Shown: piece after piece, positions 1,393 through 53,400 of the stretch
Layout of the letters: each line of letters starts with the position of its first letter
How positions within the stretch are numbered: position 1 is the first letter of the stretch
Virus record (IMG/VR): IMGVR_UViG_3300046522_000512
Coordinates: 1-64,000 of that record
DNA length: 64,000 nucleotides
Source of the DNA: a virus
Direction: 5' to 3' (one strand)
Made by a program: the position numbers and the translations under genes
The notes under the pieces: model-generated
Seen by the model: the letters and a program-made list of their open reading frames with translations, nothing else
Database searches by the model: none
Told to the model about the DNA's origin: nothing

Positions 1393-1420
1393 AGAGTGGG
1401 AGGAAGGAGGGGTTAGCGTC
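1393..1420 (-). promoter_or_regulatory. Putative phage late promoter (copy 1)
   Basis: GACGCTAAC-N13-CACTCT upstream of the fibre gene. Confidence 0.7.
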
Positions 1421-1429
1421 TCGGGCAGG

Positions 1430-2635
1430 TCAGCCGTAGAAGTCGGAGCGCGTCAGGTTCAGCACTGCGGTGCCGGCTGCGGGGTCGATCTCCTCGGACA
1501 CGATGCGGTGCCAGATCGCCAGCTCGCCCACCCACGGAATCTCGACCTGGACGAGGATGCGGTCGCCGAGTGCCCACGAGCCCAGAGGGGCGTTGGGGTG
1601 GTGGCGTATCGCGATGCTGGGAATGGTGAGCTGCTCGCTGTGCTTGGCCCGTTCCTTCTTGCCGTACTCGGTGAGGGCCTTGGCGTTCGCGGTGCTCTTG
1701 TAGCTGACGAGCTTGGCCCGCCGGACCCGCTTGTCGTTCACGACGACGCGAGCCCGAGCAGTCTTCGCGCCCGACCCCTTGCCCAGCACGTAGATGTTGT
1801 TGGCGAAGAGGTCGCCTTGGCCGGTGGGGGTCGCGATCTCGATGATGTTCTCGCCCTGACTGAACCGGAGATCACTGCGGGACTTGCCGAGCCGTCGGCG
1901 GCCCAGGGCGACGTGGTGGAGGATCTTCTCCTTGGAGCCGTCCCAGTAGTGGCGTTCGAGGTAGTCCGCATGGGCGAGGCTCATGACATCGCCGATGACC
2001 TGACCGCAGTCGGGGTTCTCCCACCACTGGAGCTCCCACGGGTCCTCGCCGGAGGCAGCGCCGAGCTTGTAGCCCGAGTCGTGTCCGTCGATGGTGATGC
2101 CGAGCTTGCCCGCGTCGTAGCTCTGTAGGTGGGCCCAGATGTGCCGATACACATCGAACACGTCCCACCGGCTGGAGATCGGGTCCTTCGGGCGCTTCGG
2201 CATCTTCTTCTTCGGATGCGTGTGGTCTATGTAGCCGTCGTGATTTTTGTCTTTACCCTCGTACGCCCATTTTTTGGGGATCTTGGCGCCTGAGCGGATC
2301 GTGTCCCCGAGGTAGGGCATGCCGTTCGGGTAAGCCGTGTAGCCCGCGCACGTGACCTTCATGGCCTGGCCCTCGAAGCCCAGGTTTGTGACGATGCCGC
2401 CCCACCGGATCCGGCCCTCGAACTCGGCGAACAGAGACGTGGCCCACTCGGCGATGACGGGCAGACCGTCAGGCTTGGCCATGAGCCGCAGGTACTCCGG
2501 GTGAATGCTGCCCTGCATCTGCCCTGGCCCGTTTAGCTCTCGTTTAGGCGGCCCGTCCGCCTCGAACGGAACATCCCAGTCGAGGAAGTCACCGGACACC
2601 GTCCGCATCGCGATGTACCGCCAGCCGTTGGCCAT
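1430..2635 (-). CDS. Siphovirus minor tail protein (Gp37-like/baseplate hub type)
   Basis: 401 aa. RELNGPG and IRWGGIV motifs and C-terminal LGDRI..WHRIV are typical of actinophage minor tail proteins. Position after Dit. Confidence 0.8.
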   Translation of the reverse strand: MANGWRYIAMRTVSGDFLDWDVPFEADGPPKRELNGPGQMQGSIHPEYLRLMAKPDGLPVIAEWATSLFAEFEGRIRWGGIVTNLGFEGQAMKVTCAGYTAYPNGMPYLGDTIRSGAKIPKKWAYEGKDKNHDGYIDHTHPKKKMPKRPKDPISSRWDVFDVYRHIWAHLQSYDAGKLGITIDGHDSGYKLGAASGEDPWELQWWENPDCGQVIGDVMSLAHADYLERHYWDGSKEKILHHVALGRRRLGKSRSDLRFSQGENIIEIATPTGQGDLFANNIYVLGKGSGAKTARARVVVNDKRVRRAKLVSYKSTANAKALTEYGKKERAKHSEQLTIPSIAIRHHPNAPLGSWALGDRILVQVEIPWVGELAIWHRIVSEEIDPAAGTAVLNLTRSDFYG

Positions 2636-3600
2636 CAGGCGCTCACCGGCTCCTGCGAGTAGGTCACCTCAAGAGAGAGAACGGTGCTCGCGTCCGCGCG
2701 CAGCACCCCCGTGACGCCCACTGTGCCGATGCCTTCCACATCGATGTCGAGCACCTGCCCGCGGTTCTCGGGCGCGAGGAGGAACTTGTGCCCGGCCTGC
2801 ACGGCGAGTCGGCTCGCCTGCGTCGCCCCGTACGGCATGCCCACTCCGTGCTGCTCGCCGAGCGACACCCGCACCTGACCGCCGGCCTCCGTGGCATCGG
2901 GGTGCAGCACGCCCGTGACGAGGACGTGCACGGCCGCATGCGTCGCCCACTCCGGGGTCTTCTCCGACCAGGTGGCGCCCAGTGGCCAGACCTCCCACTC
3001 GTCCGTGACCGGGCCGACGTCGTCCGGCGTCGACCAGGCGCCCGGCAGGTAGCGGCGGGAGGTCTGGGAACGCGGCCGCACCATCTGCCGCAGATCCTTG
3101 ACCATGGCGGCGGTGATGACAGTCGTCGATGCAGGCATGTCGATCCGGGCCAGCGTGACCGCGGTCGAGTCCGGATCGATGTCAAGGATGCTCGTGGTAC
3201 CCGGAGGTACGTCGGGGATGACCCGGGTCCACACGTACGGCCCGACCTCCGGATCCTCCGGCGTGGGCCACGTCTCCCCGCCGAACGGATCCTCGACCCT
3301 GGCAATGATCAGGTCCGACCGGCCGCCGTCGGACGACGTCGGTTCGATGTCGACCTGCTCCGTCGTGGCCATCCGCGCCGCGTAGCTCTGATTGCCGCCA
3401 CCCACGACAACCCGCCGCTTCGCCACCATCGCTCCGGGGCCAACCTGAACCGCCGAGCCTGGAGCCTCCAGAGCGGTCACCAGGAGGTCGGCCGGACCGA
3501 CGATGCCCTCCCCGCCGCACGCGGCCGCTTCAACGATCAGGCGCATCGTCTCCTCGGACGCTGCCGTGCCTTCTACAAACCAGGGGATGCCGTCCCACAT
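2635..3600 (-). CDS. Minor tail protein
   Basis: 321 aa. RSDLIIARVEDP and VTLARIDMPASTTVITAAMVKDLR resemble actinophage tail proteins. Stop/start overlap with the downstream gene. Confidence 0.75.
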   Translation of the reverse strand: MWDGIPWFVEGTAASEETMRLIVEAAACGGEGIVGPADLLVTALEAPGSAVQVGPGAMVAKRRVVVGGGNQSYAARMATTEQVDIEPTSSDGGRSDLIIARVEDPFGGETWPTPEDPEVGPYVWTRVIPDVPPGTTSILDIDPDSTAVTLARIDMPASTTVITAAMVKDLRQMVRPRSQTSRRYLPGAWSTPDDVGPVTDEWEVWPLGATWSEKTPEWATHAAVHVLVTGVLHPDATEAGGQVRVSLGEQHGVGMPYGATQASRLAVQAGHKFLLAPENRGQVLDIDVEGIGTVGVTGVLRADASTVLSLEVTYSQEPVSA

Positions 3601-3629
3601 GCCGTCTCCTTCTCCGTACCGGAGAGGAG

Positions 3630-3657
3630 AGAGTGGGTGGCCGCAGCGCCTACTGTC
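3630..3657 (-). promoter_or_regulatory. Putative late promoter (copy 2)
   Basis: GACAGTAGG-N13-CACTCT. Confidence 0.65.
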
Positions 3658-3663
3658 GCCCGC

Positions 3664-10673: not shown

Positions 10674-10709
10674 GGGTCGGGTCCTCCCGGTGGGTGTCGA
10701 AGCACCGGG

Positions 10710-10737
10710 AAGGTAGGAACCCTGATCGGCTTGCGTC
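10710..10737 (-). promoter_or_regulatory. Putative late promoter (copy 3)
   Basis: GACGCAAGC-N13-TACCTT upstream of the chaperone gene. Confidence 0.7.
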
Positions 10738-10763
10738 TCGGGGTGCGCCGGGCCTGCGGAACT

Positions 10764-10877
10764 CCCGTGTCTCTCAGTGAGAGACACGGGTGCACGCCGA
10801 CATGATTCGAGCCGTGTCTCTCAGTGAGAGACACGGCTCGGGAAGGCCGTCTGGGTGTGTCTCTCACTGAGAGACAC
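10764..10877. repeat. Three 21-bp palindromes GTGTCTCTCA(G/C)TGAGAGACAC, putative parS/operator sites
   Basis: Cores at 10767-10787, 10814-10834 and 10857-10877, directly upstream of parA. Confidence 0.9.
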
Positions 10878-10976
10878 GACCCTTTCGGTTACAGCCTATG
10901 GGGGTCTGCCACTTGGATAATCGTTTGGCTGGCAGAATGCGAGCGACCTGATCGCCATGCCTGGAAGGGCGACGTC

Positions 10977-12745: not shown

Positions 12746-12764
12746 CGCCGATCGCTGCCCGGAG

Positions 12765-12836
12765 CCCCGTGTCTCTCAGTGAGAGACACGGGGCTTTCCG
12801 CTTCCCCGGCCCGTGTCTCTCAGTGAGAGACACGGG
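12765..12836. repeat. Two further 21-bp palindromes GTGTCTCTCAGTGAGAGACAC (putative parS; may double as bidirectional terminator)
   Basis: Cores at 12769-12789 and 12813-12833, between the converging par partner and major tail genes. Confidence 0.9.
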
Positions 12837-12842
12837 ACTCGA

Positions 12843-13433
12843 TCACGGCGCCGGCGCGAACGACGGGTCGTCGGTGAGCAGGTACCAGGCGTCGGCGTCA
12901 TCGCCGCCCTGCACGGCCAGGCGCAGCGGCAGCACGGCCTCCTTTGCCTTCTGGAGGTCCGACTGCACGCCCTCCATCTGCATGGCGCGCGGCACCACGT
13001 ATCTGTAGTGCTTGCCGCCGTCGATGACCTCGACCACGGCCGCGATCTCGCCGCGGCCGCCGACGCGCGGCGGCACGAACTTGTAGTGCTTCGGGGTGCC
13101 GCCCCCGGACGGCGTGATCTCGGTGATCGTGCCGCCGCCGAACACGGCCTTGAAGTTCGCGCCGTTCCACTGCTGGAGGTCGACCTCGATCGTCGCCGAG
13201 TCCGAGGTCTGGAAGGTGCGCGACGGGTAGTCCGACTGCGCGCTCTTCACGGTCTCGAACTGGGGCTCTTCGTTGAATTTGAGCGAGTCCTCGGTGGTGA
13301 GGCCAACGCTGTACCAGCCCGTGCCCATGGCGGCGGTAGCGTCCGCCGGGGCCGCGGTGCCCACGGGCGCAAGCCATACCTGGGTACGTGCGGGGATGAC
13401 GATCTGGGTGTTGTTCGTGATTTCGCCACTCAT
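12843..13433 (-). CDS. Major tail (tube) protein
   Basis: 196 aa. VWLAPVGTAAP and W.SVGLTTEDSLKF motifs of actinophage tail tube proteins. GAGGAG RBS. Confidence 0.88.
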   Translation of the reverse strand: MSGEITNNTQIVIPARTQVWLAPVGTAAPADATAAMGTGWYSVGLTTEDSLKFNEEPQFETVKSAQSDYPSRTFQTSDSATIEVDLQQWNGANFKAVFGGGTITEITPSGGGTPKHYKFVPPRVGGRGEIAAVVEVIDGGKHYRYVVPRAMQMEGVQSDLQKAKEAVLPLRLAVQGGDDADAWYLLTDDPSFAPAP

Positions 13434-13471
13434 GGCGGTGCTCTCCTCGGGCCGGGGTTAAAGGCCGGCCC

Positions 13472-13499
13472 ACGATGGAGAGCGAGAGGGGTTACCGTC
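13472..13499 (-). promoter_or_regulatory. Putative late promoter (copy 4)
   Basis: GACGGTAAC-N13-CATCGT upstream of the major tail gene. Confidence 0.7.
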
Positions 13500-14132: not shown

Positions 14133-14136
14133 GAGG

Positions 14137-14402: not shown

Positions 14403-14429
14403 AGAGTGCCTTCGCCGACGGCTACTGTC
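14403..14429 (-). promoter_or_regulatory. Putative late promoter (copy 5)
   Basis: GACAGTAGC-N12-CACTCT, 8 nt before the ATG. Confidence 0.7.
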
Positions 14430-16846: not shown

Positions 16847-17389
16847 CTACTCGCCGAGCTGCGCGCGCAGGGTGGCGACGATGTGCTCGGCGTCCTGGCG
16901 CTGGACTTCCGCGCCGACCGACAGCAGGAGCCGCGAGGCCGGCGTGCGGTAGGGGCCCATGCTGATGTGCTCGATCAGTCGCTTCGTGGAGCGCCAGACG
17001 TTGCCGTACGGAGGTACGGGCTCGAACACGGCGTCGGGGTCGGTGGGCGCCAGGCCGGTCAGCTCGTCGACGATGCAGTCGCCGATCTCCGCGGGCAGGA
17101 GGGCATCGGGGCCGACAGGTTTCGGCGGGGCCGTCGCCCTGGTCGGCGCGGGCGGGGCTTCCAGCGGAGCGACCTCCGGCGCCTTCGTCTCGATCTCTTC
17201 GGCGGATATGGCCTTGTTCTCGATCTCGGCCGTGCCGGTCTCGGTGTCGTCCGAGACGGCCTTCGCCTCCACCGGGGCCGACTCCGGCTCGGTCGCAGCC
17301 GTCTCCGACTCGGTTACGGGCGCCGTCGCCTCTACGGCCGGAGCGGGTTCCGCCGCGGCCGCAGCCTTGCGGGTTCGGGGTGTTGCCAC
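16847..17389 (-). CDS. Hypothetical virion protein with acidic Ala/Pro/Glu N-terminus
   Basis: GTG after GGAGGA RBS; contains VEAKA, IENKA and IETKA. Confidence 0.75.
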   Translation of the reverse strand: MATPRTRKAAAAAEPAPAVEATAPVTESETAATEPESAPVEAKAVSDDTETGTAEIENKAISAEEIETKAPEVAPLEAPPAPTRATAPPKPVGPDALLPAEIGDCIVDELTGLAPTDPDAVFEPVPPYGNVWRSTKRLIEHISMGPYRTPASRLLLSVGAEVQRQDAEHIVATLRAQLGE

Positions 17390-17421: not shown

Positions 17422-17449
17422 ACCCTGACCCGCGGGGTTCGTTTACGTC
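17422..17449 (-). promoter_or_regulatory. Putative late promoter (copy 6)
   Basis: GACGTAAAC-N13-CAGGGT. Confidence 0.65.
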
Positions 17450-17495: not shown

Positions 17496-17978
17496 TCAGG
17501 AGTAGGTGAAGCCGTTCGCCTTGGTCACGGCCCCCGCCTCGTCGCCGACGACGACGTTCACCGCGCCAGCAGCGTGGGCCGGAGCCGTAACCTGGATGGT
17601 CTCGGCAGTCAGAATTTTGAGGTTCGTGCCCGCGGTGGCGCCGAACTTGACGTCGGCGACGCCGTCGAGGTTCGTGCCGGTGATGGTCACCACCGTTCCG
17701 CCGGCGGCCAGGCCGGTGGCCGGGGACACCGTCGCGACGGTCGCCGCAGGGAACAGCTTGTCGATCTGCGACTGACGCACCACCGCCCCGGCCCGGAACA
17801 TGAGCGTCTTGATCGAGCCCTCGGGGACGCCGTCACGGCTGCCCGTGGGGCGGGTGCCCTCGTCGTGCCGACGGGTGGCGTACACGTCCTGGGTGACGAT
17901 CAGCTCGGGGTCGGATACCGCACTGGTAGGGAATGCGGCCTTGGTGATGCGGGCACCGGCGGCGTTGTACAGGCCCAT
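17496..17978 (-). CDS. IPT/TIG-domain protein (probable capsid decoration)
   Basis: VATVSPATGLAAGGTVVTITGTNL...VKFG...VTAPAHAAGAVNVVV...GFTY is a typical IPT/TIG domain. Confidence 0.88.
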   Translation of the reverse strand: MGLYNAAGARITKAAFPTSAVSDPELIVTQDVYATRRHDEGTRPTGSRDGVPEGSIKTLMFRAGAVVRQSQIDKLFPAATVATVSPATGLAAGGTVVTITGTNLDGVADVKFGATAGTNLKILTAETIQVTAPAHAAGAVNVVVGDEAGAVTKANGFTYS

Positions 17979-18013: not shown

Positions 18014-18041
18014 AGGGTGCCCGACGAGAGGCCCTACAGTC
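18014..18041 (-). promoter_or_regulatory. Putative late promoter (copy 7)
   Basis: GACTGTAGG-N13-CACCCT. Confidence 0.65.
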
Positions 18042-18056: not shown

Positions 18057-19304
18057 TCACAGGATGCGGAGGTCGTCCCACCCGTCCTTCGTGACGGAGA
18101 AGACCATCAGGCCCGGCTGGGACACCTCGCCCGAGCGCATCGTGTACCAGTCCGATCCGTTGTCCAGCGTGGGTGCCTGCACCCACAGCCGGCCCGCGCC
18201 GAGCTGCTGCGCACGGAAGTGGTGGAAGTGCCCGGACACGAGGATCTTGGCGTCCGCGATGGGCTGACGACCGAACGTCTGGCCCTTCCACCAGTCCGGC
18301 GCCTTCTCCGGGCGGGCGTACTGGTGACCGTGGTTGAGGCCCACGATGGTGCCCGCCATGTCCAGGGAGACGGTGTCGCGCCAGGGCTCCGGCGTCACGA
18401 ACGAGACGTGCCCGTACGCGTCCGGGTTCTTGGCGTACGCGTCCGCGATCTGGCTCAAGACCTCGATGCCCCAGTCGTCCTCCGGGGGCCCCACAGGGTC
18501 CTTCCCGCGCCGTACGCGGGCATGGTTGCTGCCGCACGTCGCGGCGACCACCCGAGGGAACGCGGTGGCGAGACGGTCCAGGCCCTCGAAGCTCAGCCGC
18601 CGGTGCACGCGCACCATCTGCGTGAGTGTCAGGTCGTTCGTGTATGCCTGACTCGCGACGTTCTCGAACCCCTCGATGCAGTCCCCGGCGTCGAGCCAAT
18701 ACGCGGAGTCGGGGGCCCGCCCGATCTTCCCGAGGTCACGCATGTGGTCCTGGAGCCGGTCGAAGCGCTCACCGACCCGGGCCACCAGCTCCCTGGTTCC
18801 GCCGTCCCGGCCGACCTTCCCGGCCTGCGGGTCCGCGTACACCACGGCGAGCGCCCGCTCCGTCGTCTCGGCCGGAGTGCGCGGGGTGCGGCGGCGCCGC
18901 ATCGCGTCCTTGATCAGGCTGTTGAGGTCTTCAGCGGACGCCCACCCGGGCGTCGAGGGCTCGATCAGGTAGCGGCAGCGCCACACCGGCCGGGTCACCG
19001 CGTCCTCGCCCTGCGCGTCGCGATGCCACGCGGCCGGGTCGTGGCGGGCCTCCACGAGCCTGACCCGGTAGCCCTCGGGCACGACTAGGCCGAGCTCCTC
19101 CACCCGCTCACGCCAACCGAGTTCGTCCTGTCCCGGCGCCTCGGCGGCCGGCGCGGTGACGAGCATCGATCCGCCCGGCTCGTAGCGCACCCCGGGCTCC
19201 CAGCCCTTCGGCGCCGCGGTGGTGGGCCGGGTCGTCTCCGGCGGTGTGGTCTGCTCTGCAGAGGCGGGCGCCAGGAGCGCATCTAGCTGTTCGTCGAGAC
19301 TCAT
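18057..19304 (-). CDS. Calcineurin-like metallophosphoesterase/nuclease
   Basis: Motifs ADPQAGK, AGDCIEG, GSNH, HGH and GHFHH. ATG 19304 overlaps the upstream stop (ATGA). Confidence 0.85.
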   Translation of the reverse strand: MSLDEQLDALLAPASAEQTTPPETTRPTTAAPKGWEPGVRYEPGGSMLVTAPAAEAPGQDELGWRERVEELGLVVPEGYRVRLVEARHDPAAWHRDAQGEDAVTRPVWRCRYLIEPSTPGWASAEDLNSLIKDAMRRRRTPRTPAETTERALAVVYADPQAGKVGRDGGTRELVARVGERFDRLQDHMRDLGKIGRAPDSAYWLDAGDCIEGFENVASQAYTNDLTLTQMVRVHRRLSFEGLDRLATAFPRVVAATCGSNHARVRRGKDPVGPPEDDWGIEVLSQIADAYAKNPDAYGHVSFVTPEPWRDTVSLDMAGTIVGLNHGHQYARPEKAPDWWKGQTFGRQPIADAKILVSGHFHHFRAQQLGAGRLWVQAPTLDNGSDWYTMRSGEVSQPGLMVFSVTKDGWDDLRIL

Positions 19305-19570
19305 CGCGGGCACCTGCATCCGTTCGAGGCGCCGCGGCGCCGGTGCCGTGCCACAGACGGGGCTTGCACGGGATAGCCGCTGGCCGTGAGCGTGTCCGCG
19401 ATCCGTGTGGAAGTCACCATGCGGGTGTCGAGCAGCCCGTTCAGCTTCTCTGCGGTCGCGGCGTCGAGAGACGCCAGGATGTCGCCGACCGTGCAGCGCG
19501 CGCCGCGGCGTGGGGCGGGCTCGGTCATGAGCTGGGTCAGGGCCGTGCTCAGCCCGTCAGTGTCTGCCAC
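19301..19570 (-). CDS. Small HTH/Zn-binding protein coupled to the phosphoesterase
   Basis: CTVG...STRIADTLTASGYPVQAPSVARHRR...CRC. Confidence 0.75.
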   Translation of the reverse strand: MADTDGLSTALTQLMTEPAPRRGARCTVGDILASLDAATAEKLNGLLDTRMVTSTRIADTLTASGYPVQAPSVARHRRRGASNGCRCPR

Positions 19571-19597: not shown

Positions 19598-19625
19598 CGG
19601 GGCCGGACCATACGGTCCGGCCCCG
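19598..19625. terminator. Stem-loop downstream of the major capsid gene, overlapping promoter copy 8
   Basis: CGGGGCCGGACC-ATAC-GGTCCGGCCCCG. Confidence 0.65.
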
Positions 19626-19633
19626 CTAACGTC
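19607..19633 (-). promoter_or_regulatory. Putative late promoter (copy 8)
   Basis: GACGTTAGC-N12-TATGGT. Confidence 0.55.
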
Positions 19634-19669: not shown

Positions 19670-20974
19670 TTACACCGGGTCGGTCCACGTACCAATGACG
19701 AAGCTCTCCGGTCGGGAAACCTCAAGTGCCAGCCGCTCGTCGGCACGGAACGTGAGGACGCCCCTCTCGAAGTTGTCGCTGTTCTCCGAGGACACGGTGA
19801 CCGACACGTTCTCCCGGTCGTAGATCTGCGCGCCCATCCCGAACGAGCCGAGGAGGTACTTGTCGTCGGGCATGGCCGTGGTCTCGACGACGTTGACGCG
19901 CCACACGCGCTTCTGGGCGCCGACGGCGACCTGGAGCGCGACGCGGAAGGCGCCGTTGTTGTCGGTCTCGACCTCGACCTGCTCCCACATGGTGGGGCTG
20001 AGGACGACGCCGGTCGGCTCATACTCGGCGAGCAACGCCTTGGTCATCGCGCGCCGCATCTGGATGGAGAACTTGTCGGTGTTCTGCCCGGTGTACGTCT
20101 GGACGCCGGTGGTGTTGAACAGGCCGGTGATCTTGGTGCCGTCGGTGCCGACCGAGTGAAGGAGGTCCCAGTCCTCGGCAAACTTGATGCCCTCGATCAG
20201 ACGGCTGTTGATGAACTGCTTCAGACGCGGTTCGTCGGACAGGATGTTCTTGTGCCCGTCGAGCATGTGGGCGATCTCGCTGACCGGGAAGGAAACCGGC
20301 TGGAGGGTCAGCTTCGAGCGGGGGGCCCGTCCGAACACGTCGGTGTCGAGGCCGGTCGGCGCGGACGTGCCGTCGGCCGCGCGACGCTCGGCGACCTGCG
20401 CGGCGTTGTTCACCCAGCCGGTCTCGCGGATGCCCTGAAGTACCGCGTTCTTCGTGGTCGCCTTCGGGAAAAGATCGCGAATGTGGAACTTTCGGCGCTG
20501 CGCGTCGGTGATCCCGAGATCCTGGACGCCGCCGAGGGCCGCGTGGGTCTGGGTGCCGGCCGACAGGGAGAAGATCGACTTCCCCTCCATCTCGGCGCGG
20601 ATGAACGGGCGGTCCTTGAACTGCGCGCGGGCCGCGGCCTGGTAGGCGTCGGACGCGACGAACATGTCACCGAGAGACTTGACCTCGGTGTCGGAGCCGG
20701 AGCCGCCGCCGCCGTAGTACTGACCCGCGGCCGAGGAGCCGGCGGGGGCGTCGAGGTACTGGCCGAGGGCTTCGGCGCCGGTCGCGGCGTCGATCAGGCC
20801 CTTGATCTCCTGGGCGTCCTTGACCGCCTTGACGTAGGCGTTGCGCTGCTCGGTGGAGACGACGAATGCGCCGTTCTCCTCCTTGAACGTTCCTGCGATG
20901 CGCTCGGCTTCGGCTGACTTCTCGTTGAGCTGGCTCTTCAGCGAGCGCAGAAGGCTCTGGTCGGTGGTAGGCAT
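19670..20974 (-). CDS. HK97-family major capsid protein
   Basis: Coiled-coil delta domain then EVKSLG, IRDLFP, IAH and DNFERGVLTFRADERLALEVSRPESFV, matching the HK97 gp5 C-terminal pattern. Confidence 0.95.
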   Translation of the reverse strand: MPTTDQSLLRSLKSQLNEKSAEAERIAGTFKEENGAFVVSTEQRNAYVKAVKDAQEIKGLIDAATGAEALGQYLDAPAGSSAAGQYYGGGGSGSDTEVKSLGDMFVASDAYQAAARAQFKDRPFIRAEMEGKSIFSLSAGTQTHAALGGVQDLGITDAQRRKFHIRDLFPKATTKNAVLQGIRETGWVNNAAQVAERRAADGTSAPTGLDTDVFGRAPRSKLTLQPVSFPVSEIAHMLDGHKNILSDEPRLKQFINSRLIEGIKFAEDWDLLHSVGTDGTKITGLFNTTGVQTYTGQNTDKFSIQMRRAMTKALLAEYEPTGVVLSPTMWEQVEVETDNNGAFRVALQVAVGAQKRVWRVNVVETTAMPDDKYLLGSFGMGAQIYDRENVSVTVSSENSDNFERGVLTFRADERLALEVSRPESFVIGTWTDPV

Positions 20975-21057
20975 TTTGGTTGCACTCCCTGTGCTGGACG
21001 GGCGATGACGTGCGCATCACGCCCGGCCAGCACCGGGACGTCTCAACGCTGGGGCGC

Positions 21058-21085
21058 ATGGAAAGGCACAGGGGGTGTTAGCGTC
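21058..21085 (-). promoter_or_regulatory. Putative late promoter (copy 9, capsid gene)
   Basis: GACGCTAAC-N13-TTCCAT. Confidence 0.65.
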
Positions 21086-21140
21086 TCGGGCTCCCGGCCA
21101 CGCAGGGACGCGCAGCGGGGAGCCCGAGGAAAACCGCAGT

Positions 21141-23123
21141 TCAGATGGCAAGTGCGGCGAGTGCCGCCTTGACCTCCGTGGGGTCCAGGTGCACGGAGTC
21201 GTTCTCGTCGGCCGGGGTGTTCCCCGGGGGAACAGCCGTGTCGGCGTAGGGGATTGTGCTGTCGGCCGGTCCGTCGTCGGCGGTGGCGCTGTCGGCGAGT
21301 TCGTCATAGGCGGCGGGATCGCCGTCCCCGTCGTCGGGCCAGCCGTCGGTGATCGAGTACTTGTCCAGCCACGAGTCGGAGTCGTCCGAGCTGCCGTCGT
21401 CCATGGGGGCGCCCTTCTTCGACAGGGCGTCGAGGAGTTTCCCGATGGTGGGCCGCAGGTGTTCCAGGTGCGCGGGTCCGGCGTCGGACACCTCGATCAG
21501 CGCCGTGGCGTCCTGAAGAGCCCGGTCGGTCGGCCTGATGAACCGCTCGCGGGTGGACTCCGTGGCGTCGGCCAGGCGCTCCGGCCCGGCAACAGGGGTG
21601 GCCACGGTGGTGAGTTCCACCTGAACGGGCACGCCCAGGTCCACGTCCCGGCCCGACACGGTGTACGGGATGGCGTACGTGTCCGTGTCGCCGTCGTCGT
21701 AGCGGCTGACGATGATCCGGTCGGGGTAGGTCGCCTCGATCGCCACCCAGCAGCATTCCGGCTGCTCGGGGCCCCCGCCGCCGCGGTCGTCGTTGTCCGG
21801 GGTGAGCAGTGCGCGCGCAGCTTTGCTGAGCTGGTCGCGGAGCTGCTCGTAGGAGTAGGGCATGGGTGTGCTCATGAGTCGCTCCGGAAGCTGAATGGGT
21901 TCGGCGGACTTGGCCTCGATGACGATCTGCGCGGCCGACTTCTGCTCCAGCACCGCGGCGTGGGTGGCGGCCGACTTCGCCTCCATCACGATCTGCGCCG
22001 CCGACTTCGCCTCCATCGAGGCGGCGGGTGCGGCCGCGGTCTCGTCGGAGGCCGCGCCGAGCGGCACCTCGAACTCGTCGCCGCCGCGCACCACGTGGAG
22101 CGTCGTGAAGGTGACCGGGGTGGCCGGCACCGGGTCGGTGCTGTCCAGGTCGTATCCGAGGGTGACGTGCGGGGTGAACCCGTGGTCGTCGCGGACCGCC
22201 TCCGAGTACGGGGACCCGGACAGGGCGAGTACAACCTGCTGCCGCAGCTCTGCGAGGCCCGGCACGTCGACCGGCACCCACGTGGGTATGCCGTCCCCGG
22301 TGTCGGGAAAGACGCCGAGGCCGCCGAGGGTGCCCGTCAGCGGGCCCGAGTCGTTCACGGCCGGGGTGACGATGTCGCGCAGGTCGTCAGGGTGCCCGCC
22401 GAGGTCGCCGACGTCGCCGAGGTAGGCGAGCGTGATGTGCAGGCTCTCCGGGGCGGTGCCGTCGGGCTGGGCGATGGATGCGGCGACGTCGGCCGGGATC
22501 TTCAGCGCGACCATCACGCCGCGCCCCACCTGCGACTCGGCCGCCTTCAGCTCGACCGCCGACCATGTGGCCTTGCGCTCCAGTTCGTCGCGCGCCCGGG
22601 TCGCTGCCTTCACTTCGATGCTCCGCGTCATCGGGTGCGCGCCGTGAAGTACGGGGCTCACCTCGTACAGGTCCAGGTCGTGGATGATGCGGACGCCGTC
22701 GTGACGCTTGGACGCGCCGCCCGGGGGGACCTTGAAGCCGATGGAGAACTGCGCTTCGCCGTTCTCATGCCACTGGCGGACCTGTTCGTAGGCATCGCGG
22801 CCGCGGGTGGTGCGCAGGTTGTACTGGCAGGTCGCGACAAGCGCTCCGGCCTCCTTGGGCCACACGGAGCCGCCCGGGATCGAGGCGAAGCGCGGATCTC
22901 CCGGCATCCACTCCTCGATCGACAGGACACTGCCGACCGGCTCTTTCCAGTCGTGGCTCCACACCGGCTTTACACGGCGGGACGCGAGGGTGCGGGTGAA
23001 CGCTCCGGGGATGATGAGGTCTTCGACATCGTCGACCACGCCTGTGACTGCGAAGATGGCGCGGACGATGCCCTTTCCGCCGCGGGCGCGGCGCAGCATT
23101 GCGGTGGGCGGCGGGCTCGGCAC
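21141..23123 (-). CDS. HK97-type prohead protease fused to a 2H phosphoesterase (2'-5' RNA ligase/Acb1-like) and a C-terminal scaffold-like region
   Basis: Protease: DLIIPGAF, VWSHDW..PVG, FSIGF, LYEVSPVLHGA. 2H domain: LHITLAYLG and FTPHVTLGY. Confidence 0.9.
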   Translation of the reverse strand: MPSPPPTAMLRRARGGKGIVRAIFAVTGVVDDVEDLIIPGAFTRTLASRRVKPVWSHDWKEPVGSVLSIEEWMPGDPRFASIPGGSVWPKEAGALVATCQYNLRTTRGRDAYEQVRQWHENGEAQFSIGFKVPPGGASKRHDGVRIIHDLDLYEVSPVLHGAHPMTRSIEVKAATRARDELERKATWSAVELKAAESQVGRGVMVALKIPADVAASIAQPDGTAPESLHITLAYLGDVGDLGGHPDDLRDIVTPAVNDSGPLTGTLGGLGVFPDTGDGIPTWVPVDVPGLAELRQQVVLALSGSPYSEAVRDDHGFTPHVTLGYDLDSTDPVPATPVTFTTLHVVRGGDEFEVPLGAASDETAAAPAASMEAKSAAQIVMEAKSAATHAAVLEQKSAAQIVIEAKSAEPIQLPERLMSTPMPYSYEQLRDQLSKAARALLTPDNDDRGGGGPEQPECCWVAIEATYPDRIIVSRYDDGDTDTYAIPYTVSGRDVDLGVPVQVELTTVATPVAGPERLADATESTRERFIRPTDRALQDATALIEVSDAGPAHLEHLRPTIGKLLDALSKKGAPMDDGSSDDSDSWLDKYSITDGWPDDGDGDPAAYDELADSATADDGPADSTIPYADTAVPPGNTPADENDSVHLDPTEVKAALAALAI

Positions 23124-23159: not shown

Positions 23160-23187
23160 ACCGTGCCCCGCCCGGGGGGTTAGCGTC
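23160..23187 (-). promoter_or_regulatory. Putative late promoter (copy 10)
   Basis: GACGCTAAC-N13-CACGGT. Confidence 0.7.
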
Positions 23188-23791: not shown

Positions 23792-23818
23792 AGGGTCGGG
23801 AGTTCAAGAGCTTGCGTC
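23792..23818 (-). promoter_or_regulatory. Putative late promoter (copy 11)
   Basis: GACGCAAGC-N12-GACCCT, 7 nt before the GTG. Confidence 0.65.
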
Positions 23819-24093
23819 TCGGCCTCCGCCAGGAGCGTGGCCCGGACGACTGCGCCCGCCTGTGGCCGGTCGGTTCGAATTGCAACAAATTGGTTAAAGC
23901 GCTAGACATGTGGCGAGAGCCCGGTGTCCGATGGGCATCGTTTTCAGCAGGGCCCCACCTCAAGGGTGTGAGCGCTTCAGGCGAACCCGACCGCCTAGTT
24001 CCCGGTCGGGTTCGCCTGACGGCTTTTCCGACGGAACGGTCGCGTACGTCCATCCACGCCCACACCATGTACCTGCCGGTACGACCAGTCTGC

Positions 24094-24222
24094 TTACCTC
24101 CAGGCCGCGATCGCGGCAATGGTTGCCACGATCAGCCCGAGGGCCGCCAGCGCGACCATCCAGCGGTCAGCGGGCCGCCAACGGCGTTTCCCCTTCTTGG
24201 GGTGCTTCTTGGGGTGGTGCAT
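24094..24222 (-). CDS. 42-aa single-pass membrane peptide
   Basis: GGGAGG RBS; MHHPKKHPKKGKRRWRPADRWMVALAALGLIVATIAAIAAWR. Too short for the ORF track. Confidence 0.65.
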   Translation of the reverse strand: MHHPKKHPKKGKRRWRPADRWMVALAALGLIVATIAAIAAWR

Positions 24223-24324
24223 GGGTTCTTCCTCCCATCGCGGTCTAGTGGACGGATAGGCATCTGCACATCTGCCTCAGCACCACCTCCAATGAGCAGG
24301 TGTCACTACCCATACCACACGCAC

Positions 24325-24361
24325 TGTGGTCTACGCCACAGGCTATGTGGTCTAAACCAAT
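24325..24361. promoter_or_regulatory. Two tandem GntR-type (dre-like) operator boxes
   Basis: TGTGGTCTACGCCACA (24325-24340) and TGTGGTCTAAACCAAT (24346-24361), 21 bp apart in an AT-richer divergent intergenic region. Confidence 0.5.
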
Positions 24362-24460
24362 AAATCTCTGTGGGGCGCTGACCAGGAATAACGCTGCTTC
24401 AGGCAACAAACTGGTCTGCATCCGTGGTGAGATCGCGTAGCAGATAGCTAGGATCGGGCT

Positions 24461-24718
24461 ATGGCTAAGACACAGTTGAACGCGCGCGTGCCGGAGGAGC
24501 TGGCCGACGAGGTCCGCTCGGCCGCGAGTAGGGCAGGCATGGACATTGGGGACTACGTCGCCGCAGTCCTTGAGGCTGACCTGGCGGCCGCGTCAGGAAG
24601 CCAAGAACTGCGACAGGCTCGCGCGAACATGCACGCTGCCGCGGCCTACAAGAAGTGGATGGCCAGTGAAAAGTCCGAAGAGGGCGCGATGAGCATGGAG
24701 GAGGTCTTCCACGCGTGA
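24461..24718 (+). CDS. Ribbon-helix-helix antitoxin-like protein
   Basis: KTQLNARVPEELADEVRSAASRAGMDIGDYVAAVL is an RHH pattern. C-terminal AMSMEEVF is typical of RelB/ParD-like antitoxins. Confidence 0.8.
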   Translation: MAKTQLNARVPEELADEVRSAASRAGMDIGDYVAAVLEADLAAASGSQELRQARANMHAAAAYKKWMASEKSEEGAMSMEEVFHA

Positions 24719-24963
24719 CGGCGATCCCGGCAAGGTTCGCTGCCCACGTCGGCGAGACCATCAAGAACCTGCCCGGCCCTGACAAGGAGGAGCTGCACAC
24801 CGCGATCCTGCGGGCGTGTGCGGACCCGATGTCGTGGCCACAGGCCGACAAATACGAGATGGACGAGACGGTGCGCGTCATCACGACGCGCACCGCCATC
24901 GTCCACTACGTGATCCTTCTCGGCGCGGACCCTCACCTGTGGCTCTTCGCCATCACGGTCTGA
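24715..24963 (+). CDS. RelE/ParE-fold toxin-like protein
   Basis: GTGA-coupled, 82 aa. ARFAAHVGETIKNLP..K..L...I...CADP followed by three beta strands. Confidence 0.6.
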   Translation: MTAIPARFAAHVGETIKNLPGPDKEELHTAILRACADPMSWPQADKYEMDETVRVITTRTAIVHYVILLGADPHLWLFAITV

Positions 24964-25180
24964 CCGCGACCACGCTGGTCTTCTGCCGAAGCAGAGCCAG
25001 CACCGCATCCGCGTCGCCCGGGTCGAGATCCCGCCGGGGCCCGAGGGGGCCGAGCAGCACCGGCGTGCCGGCGTACTGCTCGACCATCGCCCTCACCCGG
25101 CGGGACCCGGTGACCGGGCCCCCGCCGGGGATCTGGACCTGATAGGCGGAACCGTCCTCCATCGTGCCCGTCACCAGCAT
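24953..25180 (-). CDS. Small hypothetical protein directly downstream of the giant gene
   Basis: ATG 25180 after AGGAAGG; MLVTGTMEDGSAYQVQ... Confidence 0.7.
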   Translation of the reverse strand: MLVTGTMEDGSAYQVQIPGGGPVTGSRRVRAMVEQYAGTPVLLGPLGPRRDLDPGDADAVLALLRQKTSVVAVRP

Positions 25181-25197
25181 GCTTGCCTGCCTTCCTG

Positions 25198-49629: not shown

Positions 49630-49636
49630 GCGGCGG

Positions 49637-49664
49637 ACCATGCACACCGGGGATGGTTAACGTC
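49637..49664 (-). promoter_or_regulatory. Putative late promoter (copy 12, giant gene)
   Basis: GACGTTAAC-N13-CATGGT, 7 nt before ATG 49629. Confidence 0.72.
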
Positions 49665-49700
49665 GCGGGCTCGAATTTTGCGGCCCGCGACGCGGCCGGA

Positions 49701-49916
49701 CTACATCGTCTCCGTCAGGATGTGGAGGAGGAACCAGCCCGAGAAGCCCGTCCAGGCGAGGGTGAAGGCGGCTCTTCCGAGCTTCGAGGTACGGACGTGG
49801 AAGAGCCGTCGGACGTTCTCGCTGAGGGTGTCCTCGTCCTTGCGGTTGATGAGCGCCCACGTCTCGTAGAGGGCGAACGCTGAGGTCCATGCAGACCAGA
49901 TGAGCCAACTGTTCAT
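49701..49916 (-). CDS. Small two-TM membrane protein
   Basis: ATGA-coupled, 71 aa: MNSWLIWSAWTSAFALYETWAL...DTLSENVRRLF...FTLAWTGFSGWFLLHIL. Confidence 0.8.
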   Translation of the reverse strand: MNSWLIWSAWTSAFALYETWALINRKDEDTLSENVRRLFHVRTSKLGRAAFTLAWTGFSGWFLLHILTETM

Positions 49917-50539
49917 GACGTCGTCTCCATTGCTGAGGAGGGCAGGGGGCGGGGGCCGGTGCCGTCGTACGGGGCGGCGAGACCGGCATTGATCAGGGCG
50001 CGATTGAGCTCGTGGCCGTAGGGGGTCGCGATGGTGGCGAGGTAGCGGCCGTACTTCTCGCGGCGCTCGGTGTCGACGGTGAACGCGGGCCCGTGCGCGG
50101 CGACCCACTCGCGGACCCAGTCGGCGGCGTGCTTCCCGGCGTCGGTGTTCTTCTCGGCGGTGTTGATGCCGAGGAGCCGGACGCGTTCGAAGGCGCGGAG
50201 CTCGAACCCGAGGTCGATGGCGAGGTCGAGGGTGTCTCCGTCGATGACGCGGGTGATGCTCGCGCTGTAGGTGTGCGGGGCCGGGGCGTCGGTCAGGGTC
50301 GCGAGGTAGCGGCCCTTGGTGTCGCGGGTGGTCTGGACGGTGAGCGGCCCGCCGCTGGCCTTCAGGTGTGCGCGGGCCCACGCGGCGGCCTTCTTCGGGT
50401 CGTCGGTGGTCGTGTCCGCGGTCGCCACGGCGGTCAGGCGGACGCGTTGGGCCAGGTGCAGGTCGAACCCGAGGTCGATGTCGAGGTCGAGGGCGCCCGC
50501 GCGGCCGATGCTGAGGAGGGTGGTGCGGTAGGTGTGCAT
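49913..50539 (-). CDS. Thermonuclease (SNase) family protein with duplicated domain
   Basis: ATG 50539 overlaps the portal stop. The second copy has RVIDGDT, RVRLLGINTAE, KYGRYLA and LNRALINAGLA. The first copy is degenerate. Confidence 0.88.
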   Translation of the reverse strand: MHTYRTTLLSIGRAGALDLDIDLGFDLHLAQRVRLTAVATADTTTDDPKKAAAWARAHLKASGGPLTVQTTRDTKGRYLATLTDAPAPHTYSASITRVIDGDTLDLAIDLGFELRAFERVRLLGINTAEKNTDAGKHAADWVREWVAAHGPAFTVDTERREKYGRYLATIATPYGHELNRALINAGLAAPYDGTGPRPLPSSAMETTS

Positions 50540-52998
50540 CACAGGTCGCCGCTTTCGGTGGTGCGGTAGCGCAAGCGGCACCGGCAGTTGATCGTCAGGT
50601 GGAGGGGGGCGAGCTGATCGCCGGGGAAGCGCATGGCGAAGCCGCCGACGTCGTACGGCTTGCCGACGGGCAGGGTGGTGCCGTCTACGGCCTGGTGGGC
50701 GGCGCGTACGCGGTCGTCGCGGCGGGTGACCCAGGTGCGTTCGATGCCGGGGCTGATCGCCGCGGCGGTGGCTTCCGCGGTGCCGTTGACGGTGGCGACG
50801 GCCGCCATCTCCGCCATCCCGGACGCGGTCTGTGCGGCCTGGTCGCCGAACGCGGTGCGTACGAGCGCGACCAGGTCGTCTATGTCGTCGGTGACGTCCT
50901 GCGCCTGAGTCAGCAGGGTTGCCGCGCTGTCCAGGAAGCCGCGGGCGATGTCCTCGGCGGCCGCCACGGCGTCGAGGACCGCGGCGGTGATGCGCTGCGA
51001 GGCCTCCGCCGGTACCCGCGGGGCGCCGAATGCGGCCATGGTGCGATCCGCTGTGGCGGCTGCGACCCGGGCGAGGATCCGGGCGAGGGTTCCGGTGACC
51101 TCGTCGAGCCACCGGTCGGCGCCGATGACCCGGGTCACGTCGAGTGCCGTGTCCCCGCCGCGCCGGTCCTCGGGGCCTGTCGGCTTCCAGAACTTGGTGC
51201 CCTTGCGGGCCTTGGGGGAGCGCAGCCGGGCGGTGACGACGCCTTCCTGCCGGGCGAACAGTGACTCCAGTGCGAGCGCTATCGCCTCTTGCGCCCGGTC
51301 GTAGTCGTCGTCTGTGACCTCGTACGAGGGCCGGTCGACGACCTTGAAGGGGAGGGCCTTCGTCTGGATGCCGCGGGCTTCGTCGACGGCGGCCGCGGCC
51401 GGGCCGGGCTCGGCTTGTACGTCCTGCCCCATGCGGGCTTCTGCGACTGCTGCGGCGGCCTCCCCGGGGCCGGCGGGCAGGTCTTGACCCATGCGGGCGT
51501 CGGCGACGGCCGCAGCCGCCGCACCACTGCCGTCCAGCGCGGGAGTGCCGGCGGGCTGTCCGCCGTCGGCGCGGGCCTGCGCCACCGCGTCGGCTGCCGC
51601 CCCGTTGCCGCCGGGCTGCGCCGACGGGTCGATGGGTGCGTTCGGGCCGCCGGGCGGCATGCCGGGGACGGCTTGGGAGCCGCCGCCCTGGATGCCGAGC
51701 GCCGCGGCGTCGGAGGGGAGCAGCGGGACGGGGGCCTTCTGCGGGGAGATCCACAGGGCTCGGGAGTGGGGGTTGTTGAACGGGGTGAGTCCGGCGCGGC
51801 GCCGGTACTCGTCGATGGAGATGAGTCCCTTGTCGAACTCCTCGCGGGCCTCCTGGCGGCGCTTGCGGCGGGGGAGTTCGAGGGCCTGGACGGTGGAGGT
51901 GTTGTAGCGAATCCCCAGGTCGTCTCCGCCGAGGTCTCCGGCGAACGCGTCGGAGATGAGCGCCAGGTGGCCGAGCTCGGTGTGGACCCAGAACCCGTAC
52001 TCTTCCTGCTCCGCGTTGTCGAAGGTGCGGCCCGACGCGTTGCCGGTGACGGACTCCGGGACGCCGAACGCCCCAAGGATCTCGATCTTGGAGTTCATCG
52101 CGGCGTGCTCGTAGGCCATCTCGCGCGGCCGGGCCGCCAAGTCGACGTAGTTCATGCCGCCGGGGCCCGCGCCGACCACGGACACGTGCCCGGCGAACTC
52201 CGAGCCGGGCAGGAACCGGGCCTCAAGGCGGTCCATGTCCTTGTCGGACAGGCTGCTCGTGTCGACGGCGACGATGCCGCCGGGCCTCGCGTCGTTCTTT
52301 ATGAACGCCACGTTGTACAGCCGGGACAGGTGGTCGAGTTCGATGCTGATGCCCGCGGCTTCGAGCGGTGTCTGCCCGGAGAACGGGTCGGTGGGATGCG
52401 GCTCGCGGATCCAGCGGACCCGCTCCGGTTCGAGTTCGCGGACGTGCCCGAACAGGGTCGTGAACTGGAAGTGCTTGATGTACTCGCCCTTGTCGTCCGG
52501 GATGGGGATGACCCGGTCGGGCGGAAGGAGGTCGAGGCGGGTGATGGTGCCGCGGTTGGACCGGGTCACCTCAACGAACGCACCCCGCTTGGACAGCAGG
52601 ATCTGGGCGGAGAGCCGCTTTCGGAACTGCGACCCGCTCTCCAGCGGGTTGGCCTTGGGCCCGTTCAGGAGCCGCAGGAGCGGATGGTCGTCGATGACCT
52701 CCTCGAACTCGCCGTCTTCGGTGAGGCCGCGCCCGATCTCCAAGGGGAGGCGGGCGGCGTGCTTGCCCATGGTGTCGATCGCCTTGTAGACCCAGACGAC
52801 GCGCTCATACCCCTCGGTGACGACGCGCCCGAGATCCCAGCCGTCGGCGCGGCCCTCGGTCCCCCACACGTTGCTCGTACCGGCGTACTGGGTGGAGGTG
52901 TAGCCGCCCGTCCACGCGATCGTTTTCGACTCGGCGGGCTGTAGGGCCTGGTTGGCAATCAGGTTTCGCAGAGCTGGTAGCCAGCGGCGTCGGGCCAT
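50539..52998 (-). CDS. HK97-family portal protein fused to a MuF (minor capsid) domain
   Basis: Portal: WVYKAID, HPLLRLLNGPKANP, GQTPLEAA, FIKNDARPGG, ILGAFGVP, GLISIDEYR. MuF: WVTRRDDRVRAAH...FPGD...INCRC. Confidence 0.95.
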   Translation of the reverse strand: MARRRWLPALRNLIANQALQPAESKTIAWTGGYTSTQYAGTSNVWGTEGRADGWDLGRVVTEGYERVVWVYKAIDTMGKHAARLPLEIGRGLTEDGEFEEVIDDHPLLRLLNGPKANPLESGSQFRKRLSAQILLSKRGAFVEVTRSNRGTITRLDLLPPDRVIPIPDDKGEYIKHFQFTTLFGHVRELEPERVRWIREPHPTDPFSGQTPLEAAGISIELDHLSRLYNVAFIKNDARPGGIVAVDTSSLSDKDMDRLEARFLPGSEFAGHVSVVGAGPGGMNYVDLAARPREMAYEHAAMNSKIEILGAFGVPESVTGNASGRTFDNAEQEEYGFWVHTELGHLALISDAFAGDLGGDDLGIRYNTSTVQALELPRRKRRQEAREEFDKGLISIDEYRRRAGLTPFNNPHSRALWISPQKAPVPLLPSDAAALGIQGGGSQAVPGMPPGGPNAPIDPSAQPGGNGAAADAVAQARADGGQPAGTPALDGSGAAAAAVADARMGQDLPAGPGEAAAAVAEARMGQDVQAEPGPAAAAVDEARGIQTKALPFKVVDRPSYEVTDDDYDRAQEAIALALESLFARQEGVVTARLRSPKARKGTKFWKPTGPEDRRGGDTALDVTRVIGADRWLDEVTGTLARILARVAAATADRTMAAFGAPRVPAEASQRITAAVLDAVAAAEDIARGFLDSAATLLTQAQDVTDDIDDLVALVRTAFGDQAAQTASGMAEMAAVATVNGTAEATAAAISPGIERTWVTRRDDRVRAAHQAVDGTTLPVGKPYDVGGFAMRFPGDQLAPLHLTINCRCRLRYRTTESGDL

Positions 52999-52999
52999 G

Positions 53000-53365
53000 T
53001 CACGCCCCCTCGCCGCTCATCCATACGGCGACGGCCAGAATCGCGCCGAACAGGACAGACCAGGGTGTGAACGTGTACGCCGCGGCGGACATCAGGGCCA
53101 GGCCGACGGTGAGGGTGACGTAGCCGCGGTAGAGGCGTACCTGGGGAGGTACGGGCGGCTCAGTCTGGCGGAGGACCGCCCCGCCAGCGGATGCCGTCAG
53201 TGCGCCGATCAGGAACACGACCGTGGGCGGCGACGCCGAGTAGAGGGCTCCCAGCAGGCCGACCGTCCCGACGCCGGCCAGGAGGAGGCCGAACAGATCG
53301 CGGGCGAGGCGACGCCGCATAGCCCAGCGGGTGGGAGGCGGTGGAGACTGCGTTGGAGGATTCAC
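53000..53365 (-). CDS. Four-TM membrane protein preceding the portal
   Basis: 121 aa with four hydrophobic segments; apparently leaderless GTG. Confidence 0.75.
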   Translation of the reverse strand: MNPPTQSPPPPTRWAMRRRLARDLFGLLLAGVGTVGLLGALYSASPPTVVFLIGALTASAGGAVLRQTEPPVPPQVRLYRGYVTLTVGLALMSAAAYTFTPWSVLFGAILAVAVWMSGEGA

Positions 53366-53372
53366 GCCGCGG

Positions 53373-53400
53373 ACCGTAGGAAGGCCCGCGGGTTTGCGTC
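53373..53400 (-). promoter_or_regulatory. Putative late promoter (copy 13)
   Basis: GACGCAAAC-N13-TACGGT, 7 nt before GTG 53365. Confidence 0.72.

Follow-up and report, generated by a model that had tools for sequence, protein, structure and literature searches.

The window analysed here is the whole stretch of 64,000 nucleotides (nt) that opens the viral record IMGVR_UViG_3300046522_000512, and it carries 13 copies of a two-part sequence motif, all on the minus strand and all in or beside the gaps before minus-strand genes. The motif recurs at three further places in the record, stands before the matching genes of related elements, is restricted to these elements within the genomes of their hosts, and is accompanied in every complete Streptomyces relative by a gene for a sigma factor of the extracytoplasmic function (ECF) type. 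From these sequences we infer promoter activity, a position of transcription start and a reader. Taken as a whole, the explanation that we hold, on a narrow balance, to be the probable one is that the motif constitutes the private late promoter of a family of 125-135-kb Streptomyces phage-plasmids and that an ECF-type sigma reads it.

The record comprises 84,790 bases of ∼70% G+C, with the majority of its genes on the minus strand. Scans with Pfam and PHROGs revealed a siphovirus-type virion module with genes for a tail fibre, minor tail proteins, tape measure, tail tube, major capsid protein and portal, together with a prohead protease fused to a 2H phosphoesterase and an open reading frame (ORF) of 8,149 amino acids (aa). 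A parA cassette sits inside the tail genes on the opposite strand. Beyond the window lie FtsK-like and integrase-like genes, followed at 76-84 kb by TerL, an HNH endonuclease gene and a terS-like gene. The records most similar to it are those of Streptomyces phage Gilgamesh (129 kb) and of several Streptomyces plasmids (125-133 kb), and on this sequence comparison the record therefore belongs to the phage-plasmid family related to Gilgamesh. By tblastx, the record and Gilgamesh are colinear over the part of the phage genome that runs from 66 kb back past position 1 to 121 kb; the Gilgamesh segment from 66 to 121 kb has no counterpart in the record, meaning that a segment of ∼55 kb is missing. 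Our comparisons took in seven complete plasmids, 32 genome loci, IMG/VR contigs and the cultured phage Gilgamesh; the plasmid compared throughout is NZ_CP122459 (131 kb, Streptomyces). The sequencing runs listed as containing the DNA of the window number 14, all of them DNA metagenomes, with no RNA run among them.

Each of the 13 sites opens with GAC-NN-WA-RS, which is followed by a spacer of 13 nt at 10 sites and of 12 nt at 14403-14429, 19607-19633 and 23792-23818, and then by a hexamer that reads YANNNT in 11 cases, the deviants being TTCCAT at 21058-21085 and GACCCT at 23792-23818. All of this agrees with a first-pass annotation of the window, whose 13 minus-strand copies were found again where it had placed them and whose description of them as co-oriented, intergenic and fixed in spacing was borne out throughout; all 16 strong sites of the record precede minus-strand genes. 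The motif exceeds that earlier description in being an element of ∼36 bases in two parts. Numbering from the G of GAC as position 0, so that the hexamer occupies positions 22-27 (21-26 at short-spacer sites), we found position -7 to be A in 12 of 13 sites and position -2 to be a conserved G. The consensus on the coding strand is A-S-N-N-C-G-N-GAC-R-N-W-A-R-C, 12-13 nt, C-A-Y-N-N-T-N-C.

The opening 9-mer alone is not enriched, with 17 matches in the window compared to 33.35 +/- 6.07 in shuffled sequence. It would have spoken against a promoter role if the motif were equally frequent in coding DNA and on both strands; the minus strand holds 14 of the 17 matches, and 13 of these 14 are intergenic and followed by the hexamer. 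That is, the signal resides in strand, position and second block, not in the 9-mer by itself. We therefore worked with a two-block matrix built from the 13 window sites, which was scanned over the 84.8-kb record with a hit threshold of at least 15 bits. This whole-record scan, which the first-pass annotation had proposed, returned 16 strong minus-strand sites, three of them beyond the window, with scores of 20.2-29.7 bits over a background reaching at most ∼15 bits; left out of training one at a time, the 13 training sites still score 15.2-27.5 bits. Overall, the record contains 20 matches of at least 15 bits (17 minus, 3 plus), against 0.40 per record in 30 second-order Markov shuffles, in which the maximum score was 19.7 bits. 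Together with the scan of 32 loci described below, the matrix scores and shuffles rule out chance as an explanation.

With the same window-derived matrix, Gilgamesh gave 25 plus-strand matches and one minus-strand match of at least 15 bits, and plasmid NZ_CP122459 gave 19 and four, where about one was expected in each. The 32 Streptomyces genome loci around the capsid gene (231 kb) gave 95 plus-strand matches and one minus-strand match at this threshold. Position is kept as well as strand: for 15 of the 16 record sites, Gilgamesh or the plasmid has a copy before the corresponding gene, and for 12 of them both do. Upstream of the capsid gene, an alignment of 32 rows (the window and 31 loci, the shorter locus L026 being omitted) shows conserved motif columns and variable sequence further upstream. 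Across 116 sites of the relatives, the upstream block is made up of A-7 (84%), G-6 (82%), C-3 (97%), G-2 (84%), GAC (∼100%), W5, A6 (100%), R7 (A 43%, G 56%) and C8 (74%), and the hexamer starts with C (72%) or T (19%), continues with A (86%) and ends with T (100%), at a spacing of 13 nt in 106 sites and 12 nt in 10. A C two nt past the hexamer is found in 88% of these sites and, being outside the matrix, counts as independent support.

The scan of host genomes, likewise proposed at first pass, used the strict pattern GACGYTAAC-N12-13-YANNNT on five whole Streptomyces genomes (43.3 Mb). It yielded 16 matches, of which 13 fall in the element and three elsewhere, the reversed-pattern control giving two. 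Within Gilgamesh, the gene blocks of opposite orientation, comprising many minus-strand genes, have a single match as against 25. Thus, the motif marks the late module, neither transcription generally nor a host regulon, and its confinement to the element rather than the host chromosome fits a dedicated reader.

The distance to the start codons suggests a promoter. An ATG or GTG lies 6-8 nt past the hexamer at six of 16 record sites (anchors, i.e., the G of GAC, at 14429, 23818, 49664, 53400, 78486 and 83463) and at four of the 13 in the window, opening ORFs of 85-8143 aa; with start codons at a background rate of 4.0% on this strand, six of 16 has a binomial P of 2.3e-5. A start codon at this position is, to judge from the sequence, the layout of a leaderless mRNA, and such mRNAs are common in actinobacteria. 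At the remaining sites, the start codon comes a variable 25-83 nt later and has a GGAG-type ribosome site before it. Both distance classes recur in Gilgamesh and NZ_CP122459, and the giant gene and the 121-aa pre-portal, 190-aa and 85-aa genes have the leaderless layout in record, phage and plasmid alike. These distances would therefore place GAC near -35 and the hexamer near -13 to -8, relative to the start of transcription. Overall, we regard the sites as very probably promoters. An assignment to the start-associated sequences of cluster K mycobacteriophages failed, given that those are conserved blocks that abut the start codon and include the ribosome-binding site, and that the start codon here follows either at 6-8 nt with no ribosome site or at the variable 25-83 nt. 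A survey of RNA structure at the 16 sites found a strong hairpin directly upstream at four and no significant structure around 12; read-through or antitermination across the late module may occur. The proposal made at first pass, namely many promoters read by a dedicated factor rather than one antiterminated transcript, thus gains from the geometry, the conservation and the restriction to the element as far as promoters and a private reader are concerned, and leaves that reader as a candidate.

The candidate is the product of gene 92 of Gilgamesh (gp92), an ECF-type sigma with Sigma70_r2, r4_2 and ECF domains. A homologue is present in seven of seven Streptomyces plasmids that share the capsid gene, and in four genomes the best match to it lies on the element's own contig. 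Conversely, 13 of 13 IMG/VR loci of the family that were located via the sigma carry one to three motif matches, on the opposite strand. The ECF superfamily is the sole model that the element sigmas match above cut-off, with ShbA and BldN as nearest named families and BldN (6dxo) as nearest solved structure. The element sigmas (loci L047-L051, L004 and L006) have in common a C-terminal extension of ∼45 aa after region 4, which a host ECF sigma from the same genome does not have. In both Gilgamesh and NZ_CP122459, two genes of unknown function follow the sigma gene. We consider it likely that the reader is encoded by the element, and lean, with less assurance, toward its being the ECF-type sigma.

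We propose the following course of events. Early or middle transcription would make the sigma, which would then turn on the late regulon, an order implied by the lack of a motif before the sigma gene itself. Transcription would start 6-8 nt past the hexamer, and the start would fall either on the start codon, leaving about one site in three leaderless, or 20-85 nt before a gene with a ribosome site. Most virion, packaging and lysis genes, singly or in short groups, would own a copy, amounting to 16 in the record and 13 in the window. The reader would be element-encoded and most plausibly the ECF-type sigma that every complete Streptomyces relative carries.

Several findings weigh against this proposal. 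The first-pass annotation had recognised no dedicated factor in the window, and indeed a Pfam scan of its ORFs shows no sigma there; nor is there one in the whole 84.8-kb record by Pfam (48 ORFs), tblastn or a family profile over 585 ORFs. The syntenic segment is missing from the record, and the sigma gene would lie in these absent ∼55 kb. A sigma-bearing viral contig of 39 kb may be part of that segment, the link being co-occurrence in samples only: 30 of its 30 bins are covered in runs X1 and X3 and 29 of 30, at low depth, in run X2, and these three runs also contain the DNA of the window. ECF sigma genes are usually preceded by their own promoter, and no motif of at least 15 bits is found upstream of the sigma gene in Gilgamesh (86.7-87.0 kb, minus strand) or NZ_CP122459 (3.1-3.3 kb, minus strand). 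Three subtypes, mutually only ∼35% identical, can be told apart among the element sigmas, and the motif barely differs between their hosts. In the hexamer, the conserved A that stands four nt ahead of the T resembles a housekeeping -10 element more than a typical ECF one. As for individual sites, the hexamer of the copy at 19607-19633 is buried in a strong hairpin (-31.5 kcal/mol, z = -4.1), and neither Gilgamesh nor the plasmid has a match of 15 bits or more that corresponds to this copy. Finally, the matrix was trained on sites chosen at first pass, a bias that the leave-one-out scores and the independent genomes address.

A further finding against the proposal comes from a distant relative, the Thermobispora bispora plasmid NZ_CP039125, whose capsid protein is 46% identical and which keeps the order of portal, giant gene, protease and capsid. 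In this plasmid, the 9-nt core recurs at 16 sites, each followed after 12 nt by a similar hexamer; some of the sites have the leaderless layout, and they lack the upstream extension. Pfam r2, protein search and a family-specific profile (741 ORFs) all failed to turn up a sigma in it, the sole r4-like match being to the helix-turn-helix in a terS-like ORF. What it has in common with the Streptomyces elements is limited to structural genes, ParA and one hypothetical ORF that, among those elements, Gilgamesh alone possesses (tblastn with composition statistics). We discarded a tblastx comparison of Gilgamesh 66-121 kb with this plasmid, which gave only short matches of at most ∼53 bits with inflated summed E-values. 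NZ_CP039125 carries insertion elements and repeats itself at an offset of 108,210 bases, with the motif positions recurring there (loci L009, L014 and L053). It may be decayed or over-assembled; the 145-kb "circle" is probably an over-assembled replicon of 108 kb.

A core kept where no sigma is encoded leaves a host sigma, or some other factor, alive as reader. The promoters might be read by a host sigma, either HrdB or an ECF sigma of the BldN/ShbA kind, alone or with an element-encoded activator on the upstream block, the element sigma then serving other genes, an arrangement that we rate as unlikely while giving it appreciable weight. Besides the Thermobispora plasmid, it is favoured by the GAC-to-hexamer gap, which would be 17-18 bp if GAC belongs to a TTGAC-like -35 element, by the spacing of the hexamer A and T as in housekeeping -10 elements, by an upstream block of ∼16 nt, which is longer than the usual -35 element as expected of an activator site, and by the relation of the element sigmas to the host families ShbA and BldN. 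The base composition of the sites tells against it. The housekeeping HrdB-type consensus of Streptomyces is TTGACN-17-TANNNT, and the motif fits it in the distance from GAC to the hexamer and fails it in the bases: those before GAC are G (84%) and C/G/A, with T at 0-1%, where TT would be called for at -2 and -1, and the hexamer opens with C far more often than with T. Moreover, the strict matches outside the element hardly outnumber those of the reversed control (three versus two), leaving no host regulon visible, and there is no regulator common to the Thermobispora and Streptomyces elements.

The Thermobispora plasmid also admits a scenario in which the core GACGYTAAC, 12-13 nt, CAYNNT predates its present reader. 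Here, the core would have been read, as perhaps still in Thermobispora, by a host ECF sigma of the BldN/ShbA kind or another factor; the Streptomyces phage-plasmids would have taken such a sigma and added the C-terminal extension of ∼45 aa; and the promoter would have gained the matching A-7, G-6, C-3 and G-2, whereby the late regulon became private. Recognition would then include contacts of the sigma tail with DNA upstream of -35, a mode that, to our knowledge, has not been described for ECF sigmas. We regard this chain of events, taken jointly, as speculative and rather improbable.

Two further explanations dispense with promoters altogether, and we regard each as very improbable. The sites could be operators at which a prophage repressor silences the late genes in the plasmid state, in the manner of stoperators, which would suit many co-oriented, asymmetric, intergenic copies on an extrachromosomal prophage with a par system. 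The two blocks are unrelated to each other, being neither inverted nor direct repeats, the fixed 6-8 nt to the start codon in a third of the sites serves no operator role, and the gene blocks on the opposite Gilgamesh strand are practically free of the motif, whereas stoperators occur in both arms. Alternatively, the motif could act in RNA as a processing, stabilising or termination signal between the late genes of one long transcript. In keeping with this, a strong hairpin ends at the motif in four of 16 sites, the hexamer lies inside a hairpin at one, and the arms of the hairpin before the capsid promoter change in a compensatory way from one subfamily to another. Most sites (12 of 16) are free of significant surrounding structure, though, and the conserved bases read as sequence, not as pairs; Rfam has nothing in the window at gathering thresholds, and start codons at a fixed distance, with no ribosome site of their own, agree with transcription starts.

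Returning to the proposed private late promoter read by an ECF-type sigma, its closest analogues by layout are ECF (group 4) promoters. The sigma-E promoters of S. coelicolor are given as having AAC in the -35 region and TC in the -10 region (PMC6767563), and searches for ECF promoters used spacers of 16-18 bp (PMC7776599). Measured against these accounts, the layout of the late motif appears ECF-like in part: A6 is invariant, C8 stands at 74%, and an invariant T and a C at 88% follow 16-18 bp beyond the upstream block. Two blocks at fixed spacing, an A-A/G-C core in the upstream one and an ECF-type sigma in every complete Streptomyces relative make up the likeness. The differences are an upstream block of ∼16 nt (A at -7 to C at +8) with either A or G at position 7, the conserved A that precedes the T by four nt, as in housekeeping -10 elements, and a sigma gene that lacks its presumed promoter; recognition by the sigma is our proposal here.

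At the level of the regulon, the nearest precedents are T4 (gp55 with TATAAATA) and the Bacillus phage SPO1 (gp33/gp34), in which a phage-made sigma reads a private late promoter repeated before the late genes. As there, one private promoter would precede many late genes and be switched on by a phage-made specificity factor. Unlike here, the sigmas of T4 and SPO1 are highly divergent and not of the ECF type, and T4 late promoters lack a -35 block; our elements are temperate phage-plasmids of high-GC actinobacteria in which ∼1/3 of the late transcripts would be leaderless. The stoperators of cluster A mycobacteriophages, some of which carry par systems, are single asymmetric 13-bp sites for the L5 repressor gp71 that occur in both the early and the late arm, are oriented with local transcription and stop elongation. 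They resemble the present motif in being numerous, co-oriented and asymmetric and in occupying the short intergenic gaps of temperate actinophages, and differ from it in that the motif is two-part with the spacing of a promoter, occupies the late strand only and is tied to start codons; the assignment failed on the two unrelated blocks and on the 25 plus to one minus distribution in Gilgamesh despite its many minus-strand genes. Judged from titles and the openings of abstracts, the papers that we found deal neither with this motif nor with Gilgamesh, nor do they treat the late transcription of these phage-plasmids.

The individual copies are collected in the table below.

Copies of the putative late promoter in record IMGVR_UViG_3300046522_000512. 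The anchor of a copy is the G of GAC; counterparts are matrix matches before the matching gene, and (l) marks those with leaderless layout.
Position	Strand	Score (bits)	Context	Gilgamesh	NZ_CP122459
1393-1420	minus	27.8	before tail-fibre gene (1-1337 or 1-1361; tail-fibre PHROGs); anchor 9 nt past stop of gene 1430-2635	65968	115689
3630-3657	minus	22.5	before minor tail gene 2635-3600 (PHROG minor tail protein); ATG 29 nt past hexamer end, GGAG-type ribosome site	63686	113423
10710-10737	minus	26.4	before tail-chaperone-like gene (ATG 10673; matches Gilgamesh chaperone region by tblastx), in divergent gap with parA; ribosome site and ATG 36 nt past hexamer	57809	107549
13472-13499	minus	28.1	before tail tube gene 12843-13433 (Pfam Phage_TTP_17, E = 1e-36)	56851	104695
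14403-14429	minus	26.6	12-nt spacer; ATG 14394 (85-aa gene) 8 nt past hexamer, leaderless layout	56104 (l)	103573 (l)
17422-17449	minus	22.0	before 180-aa gene 16847-17389; hairpin ending at -1 (z = -2.1)	53718	
18014-18041	minus	20.2 (lowest of 13; leave-one-out 15.2)	before IPT/TIG-domain gene 17496-17978 (Pfam TIG)	53109	
19607-19633	minus	22.8	just past capsid gene, before 89-aa ORF 19301-19570; 12-nt spacer; least certain copy		
21058-21085	minus	24.7	before major capsid gene 19670-20974 (Pfam Phage_capsid); deviant hexamer, 83-nt leader		
23160-23187	minus	26.1	before prohead protease/2H phosphoesterase gene 21141-23123 (Pfam Peptidase_S78 and 2_5_RNA_ligase2)	47097	94691
23792-23818	minus	22.6	12-nt spacer; GTG 23784 (190-aa gene) 7 nt past hexamer, leaderless layout	46201 (l)	93906 (l)
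49637-49664	minus	29.7 (best site)	before giant ORF; in-frame ATG 49629 7 nt past hexamer, leaderless layout	31955 (l)	74737 (l)
53373-53400	minus	28.0	before 121-aa gene (GTG 53365, 7 nt past hexamer, leaderless layout), then portal gene 50539-52998 (Pfam Phage_portal)	28759 (l)	71671 (l)
78486 (record)	minus		before TerL; outside window and training set		
81559 (record)	minus		before HNH gene; outside window and training set		
83463 (record)	minus		before terS-like gene; outside window and training set		
63668-63695	plus	17.0 (below shuffle maximum of 19.7)	before 197-aa accessory-region ORF; membership doubtful		

The first-pass annotation had seen no copy before par or the accessory genes, which holds for parA and is to be qualified for the accessory region by the weak plus-strand match at 63668. 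A further plus-strand match, at record position 83482 (19.1 bits), stands back to back with the minus-strand copy at 83463 (region 83435-83510), and the two could be a divergent promoter pair heading the packaging genes; the nearest plus-strand ORF call after it is 668 nt off. The giant ORF, which the plain ORF list opens at GTG 49647 (25198-49647), probably starts at ATG 49629, giving a protein of 8143 aa. Between the end of this ORF and the next promoter copy, codon-position G+C supports no confident gene in the ∼1.4 kb of 23819-25197, and the relatives have only a gene of 77-89 aa at this place.

The leader of the capsid gene (20975-21057, minus strand; loci L015-L046) contains a block of 19 nt that is invariant in 32 of 32 rows, the capsid proteins being 66-90% identical. 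The next 7 nt are identical in 31 of the 32, the window being the exception. The block can fold into a short hairpin, has a similar version in the Thermobispora plasmid and is without a match in Rfam; it may serve to control the capsid gene at translation or through RNA binding. Upstream of the same gene, a strong hairpin (21086-21130, minus strand; -37.4 kcal/mol, z = -4.6) ends exactly at the promoter, whose upstream extension forms its 3′ arm. Its arms covary between subfamilies, as GGGCTCCC/GGGAGCCC versus GTGCTGCC/GGCAGCAC.

Around the parA cassette, a palindrome of 27 bp occurs five times (10764-10883 and 12766-12839), three copies being upstream and two downstream. These are probably partition (parS-like) sites, one of which lies 27 nt upstream of the chaperone promoter copy at 10710-10737. 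De novo counts of words and dyads in the non-coding DNA of Gilgamesh, the plasmid and the record missed even the known motif and so had no power on a second one. Two words were considered and dropped: ACGCCACA, with six copies in the non-coding DNA of the record and just one in the window, and CCCGGTGCT, with four copies where 1.34 were expected, of which two lie in late leaders.

From T4 and SPO1, the idea of many late genes that each have a copy of one private promoter is well known, and the motif of this family would be a further instance of it. The motif pairs a candidate ECF-type sigma with a defined target sequence, and since Gilgamesh grows on S. lividans, this pairing is directly testable; if true, the sigma and its promoter would make an orthogonal switch for Streptomyces engineering. 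The Thermobispora relative, which keeps the core and has no sigma, poses the question of what first read the promoter. The predicted leaderless start codons would correct gene calls, the giant ORF being an example. Across this widespread and unstudied family of large Streptomyces phage-plasmids, the motif lets the late transcription units be mapped at once.

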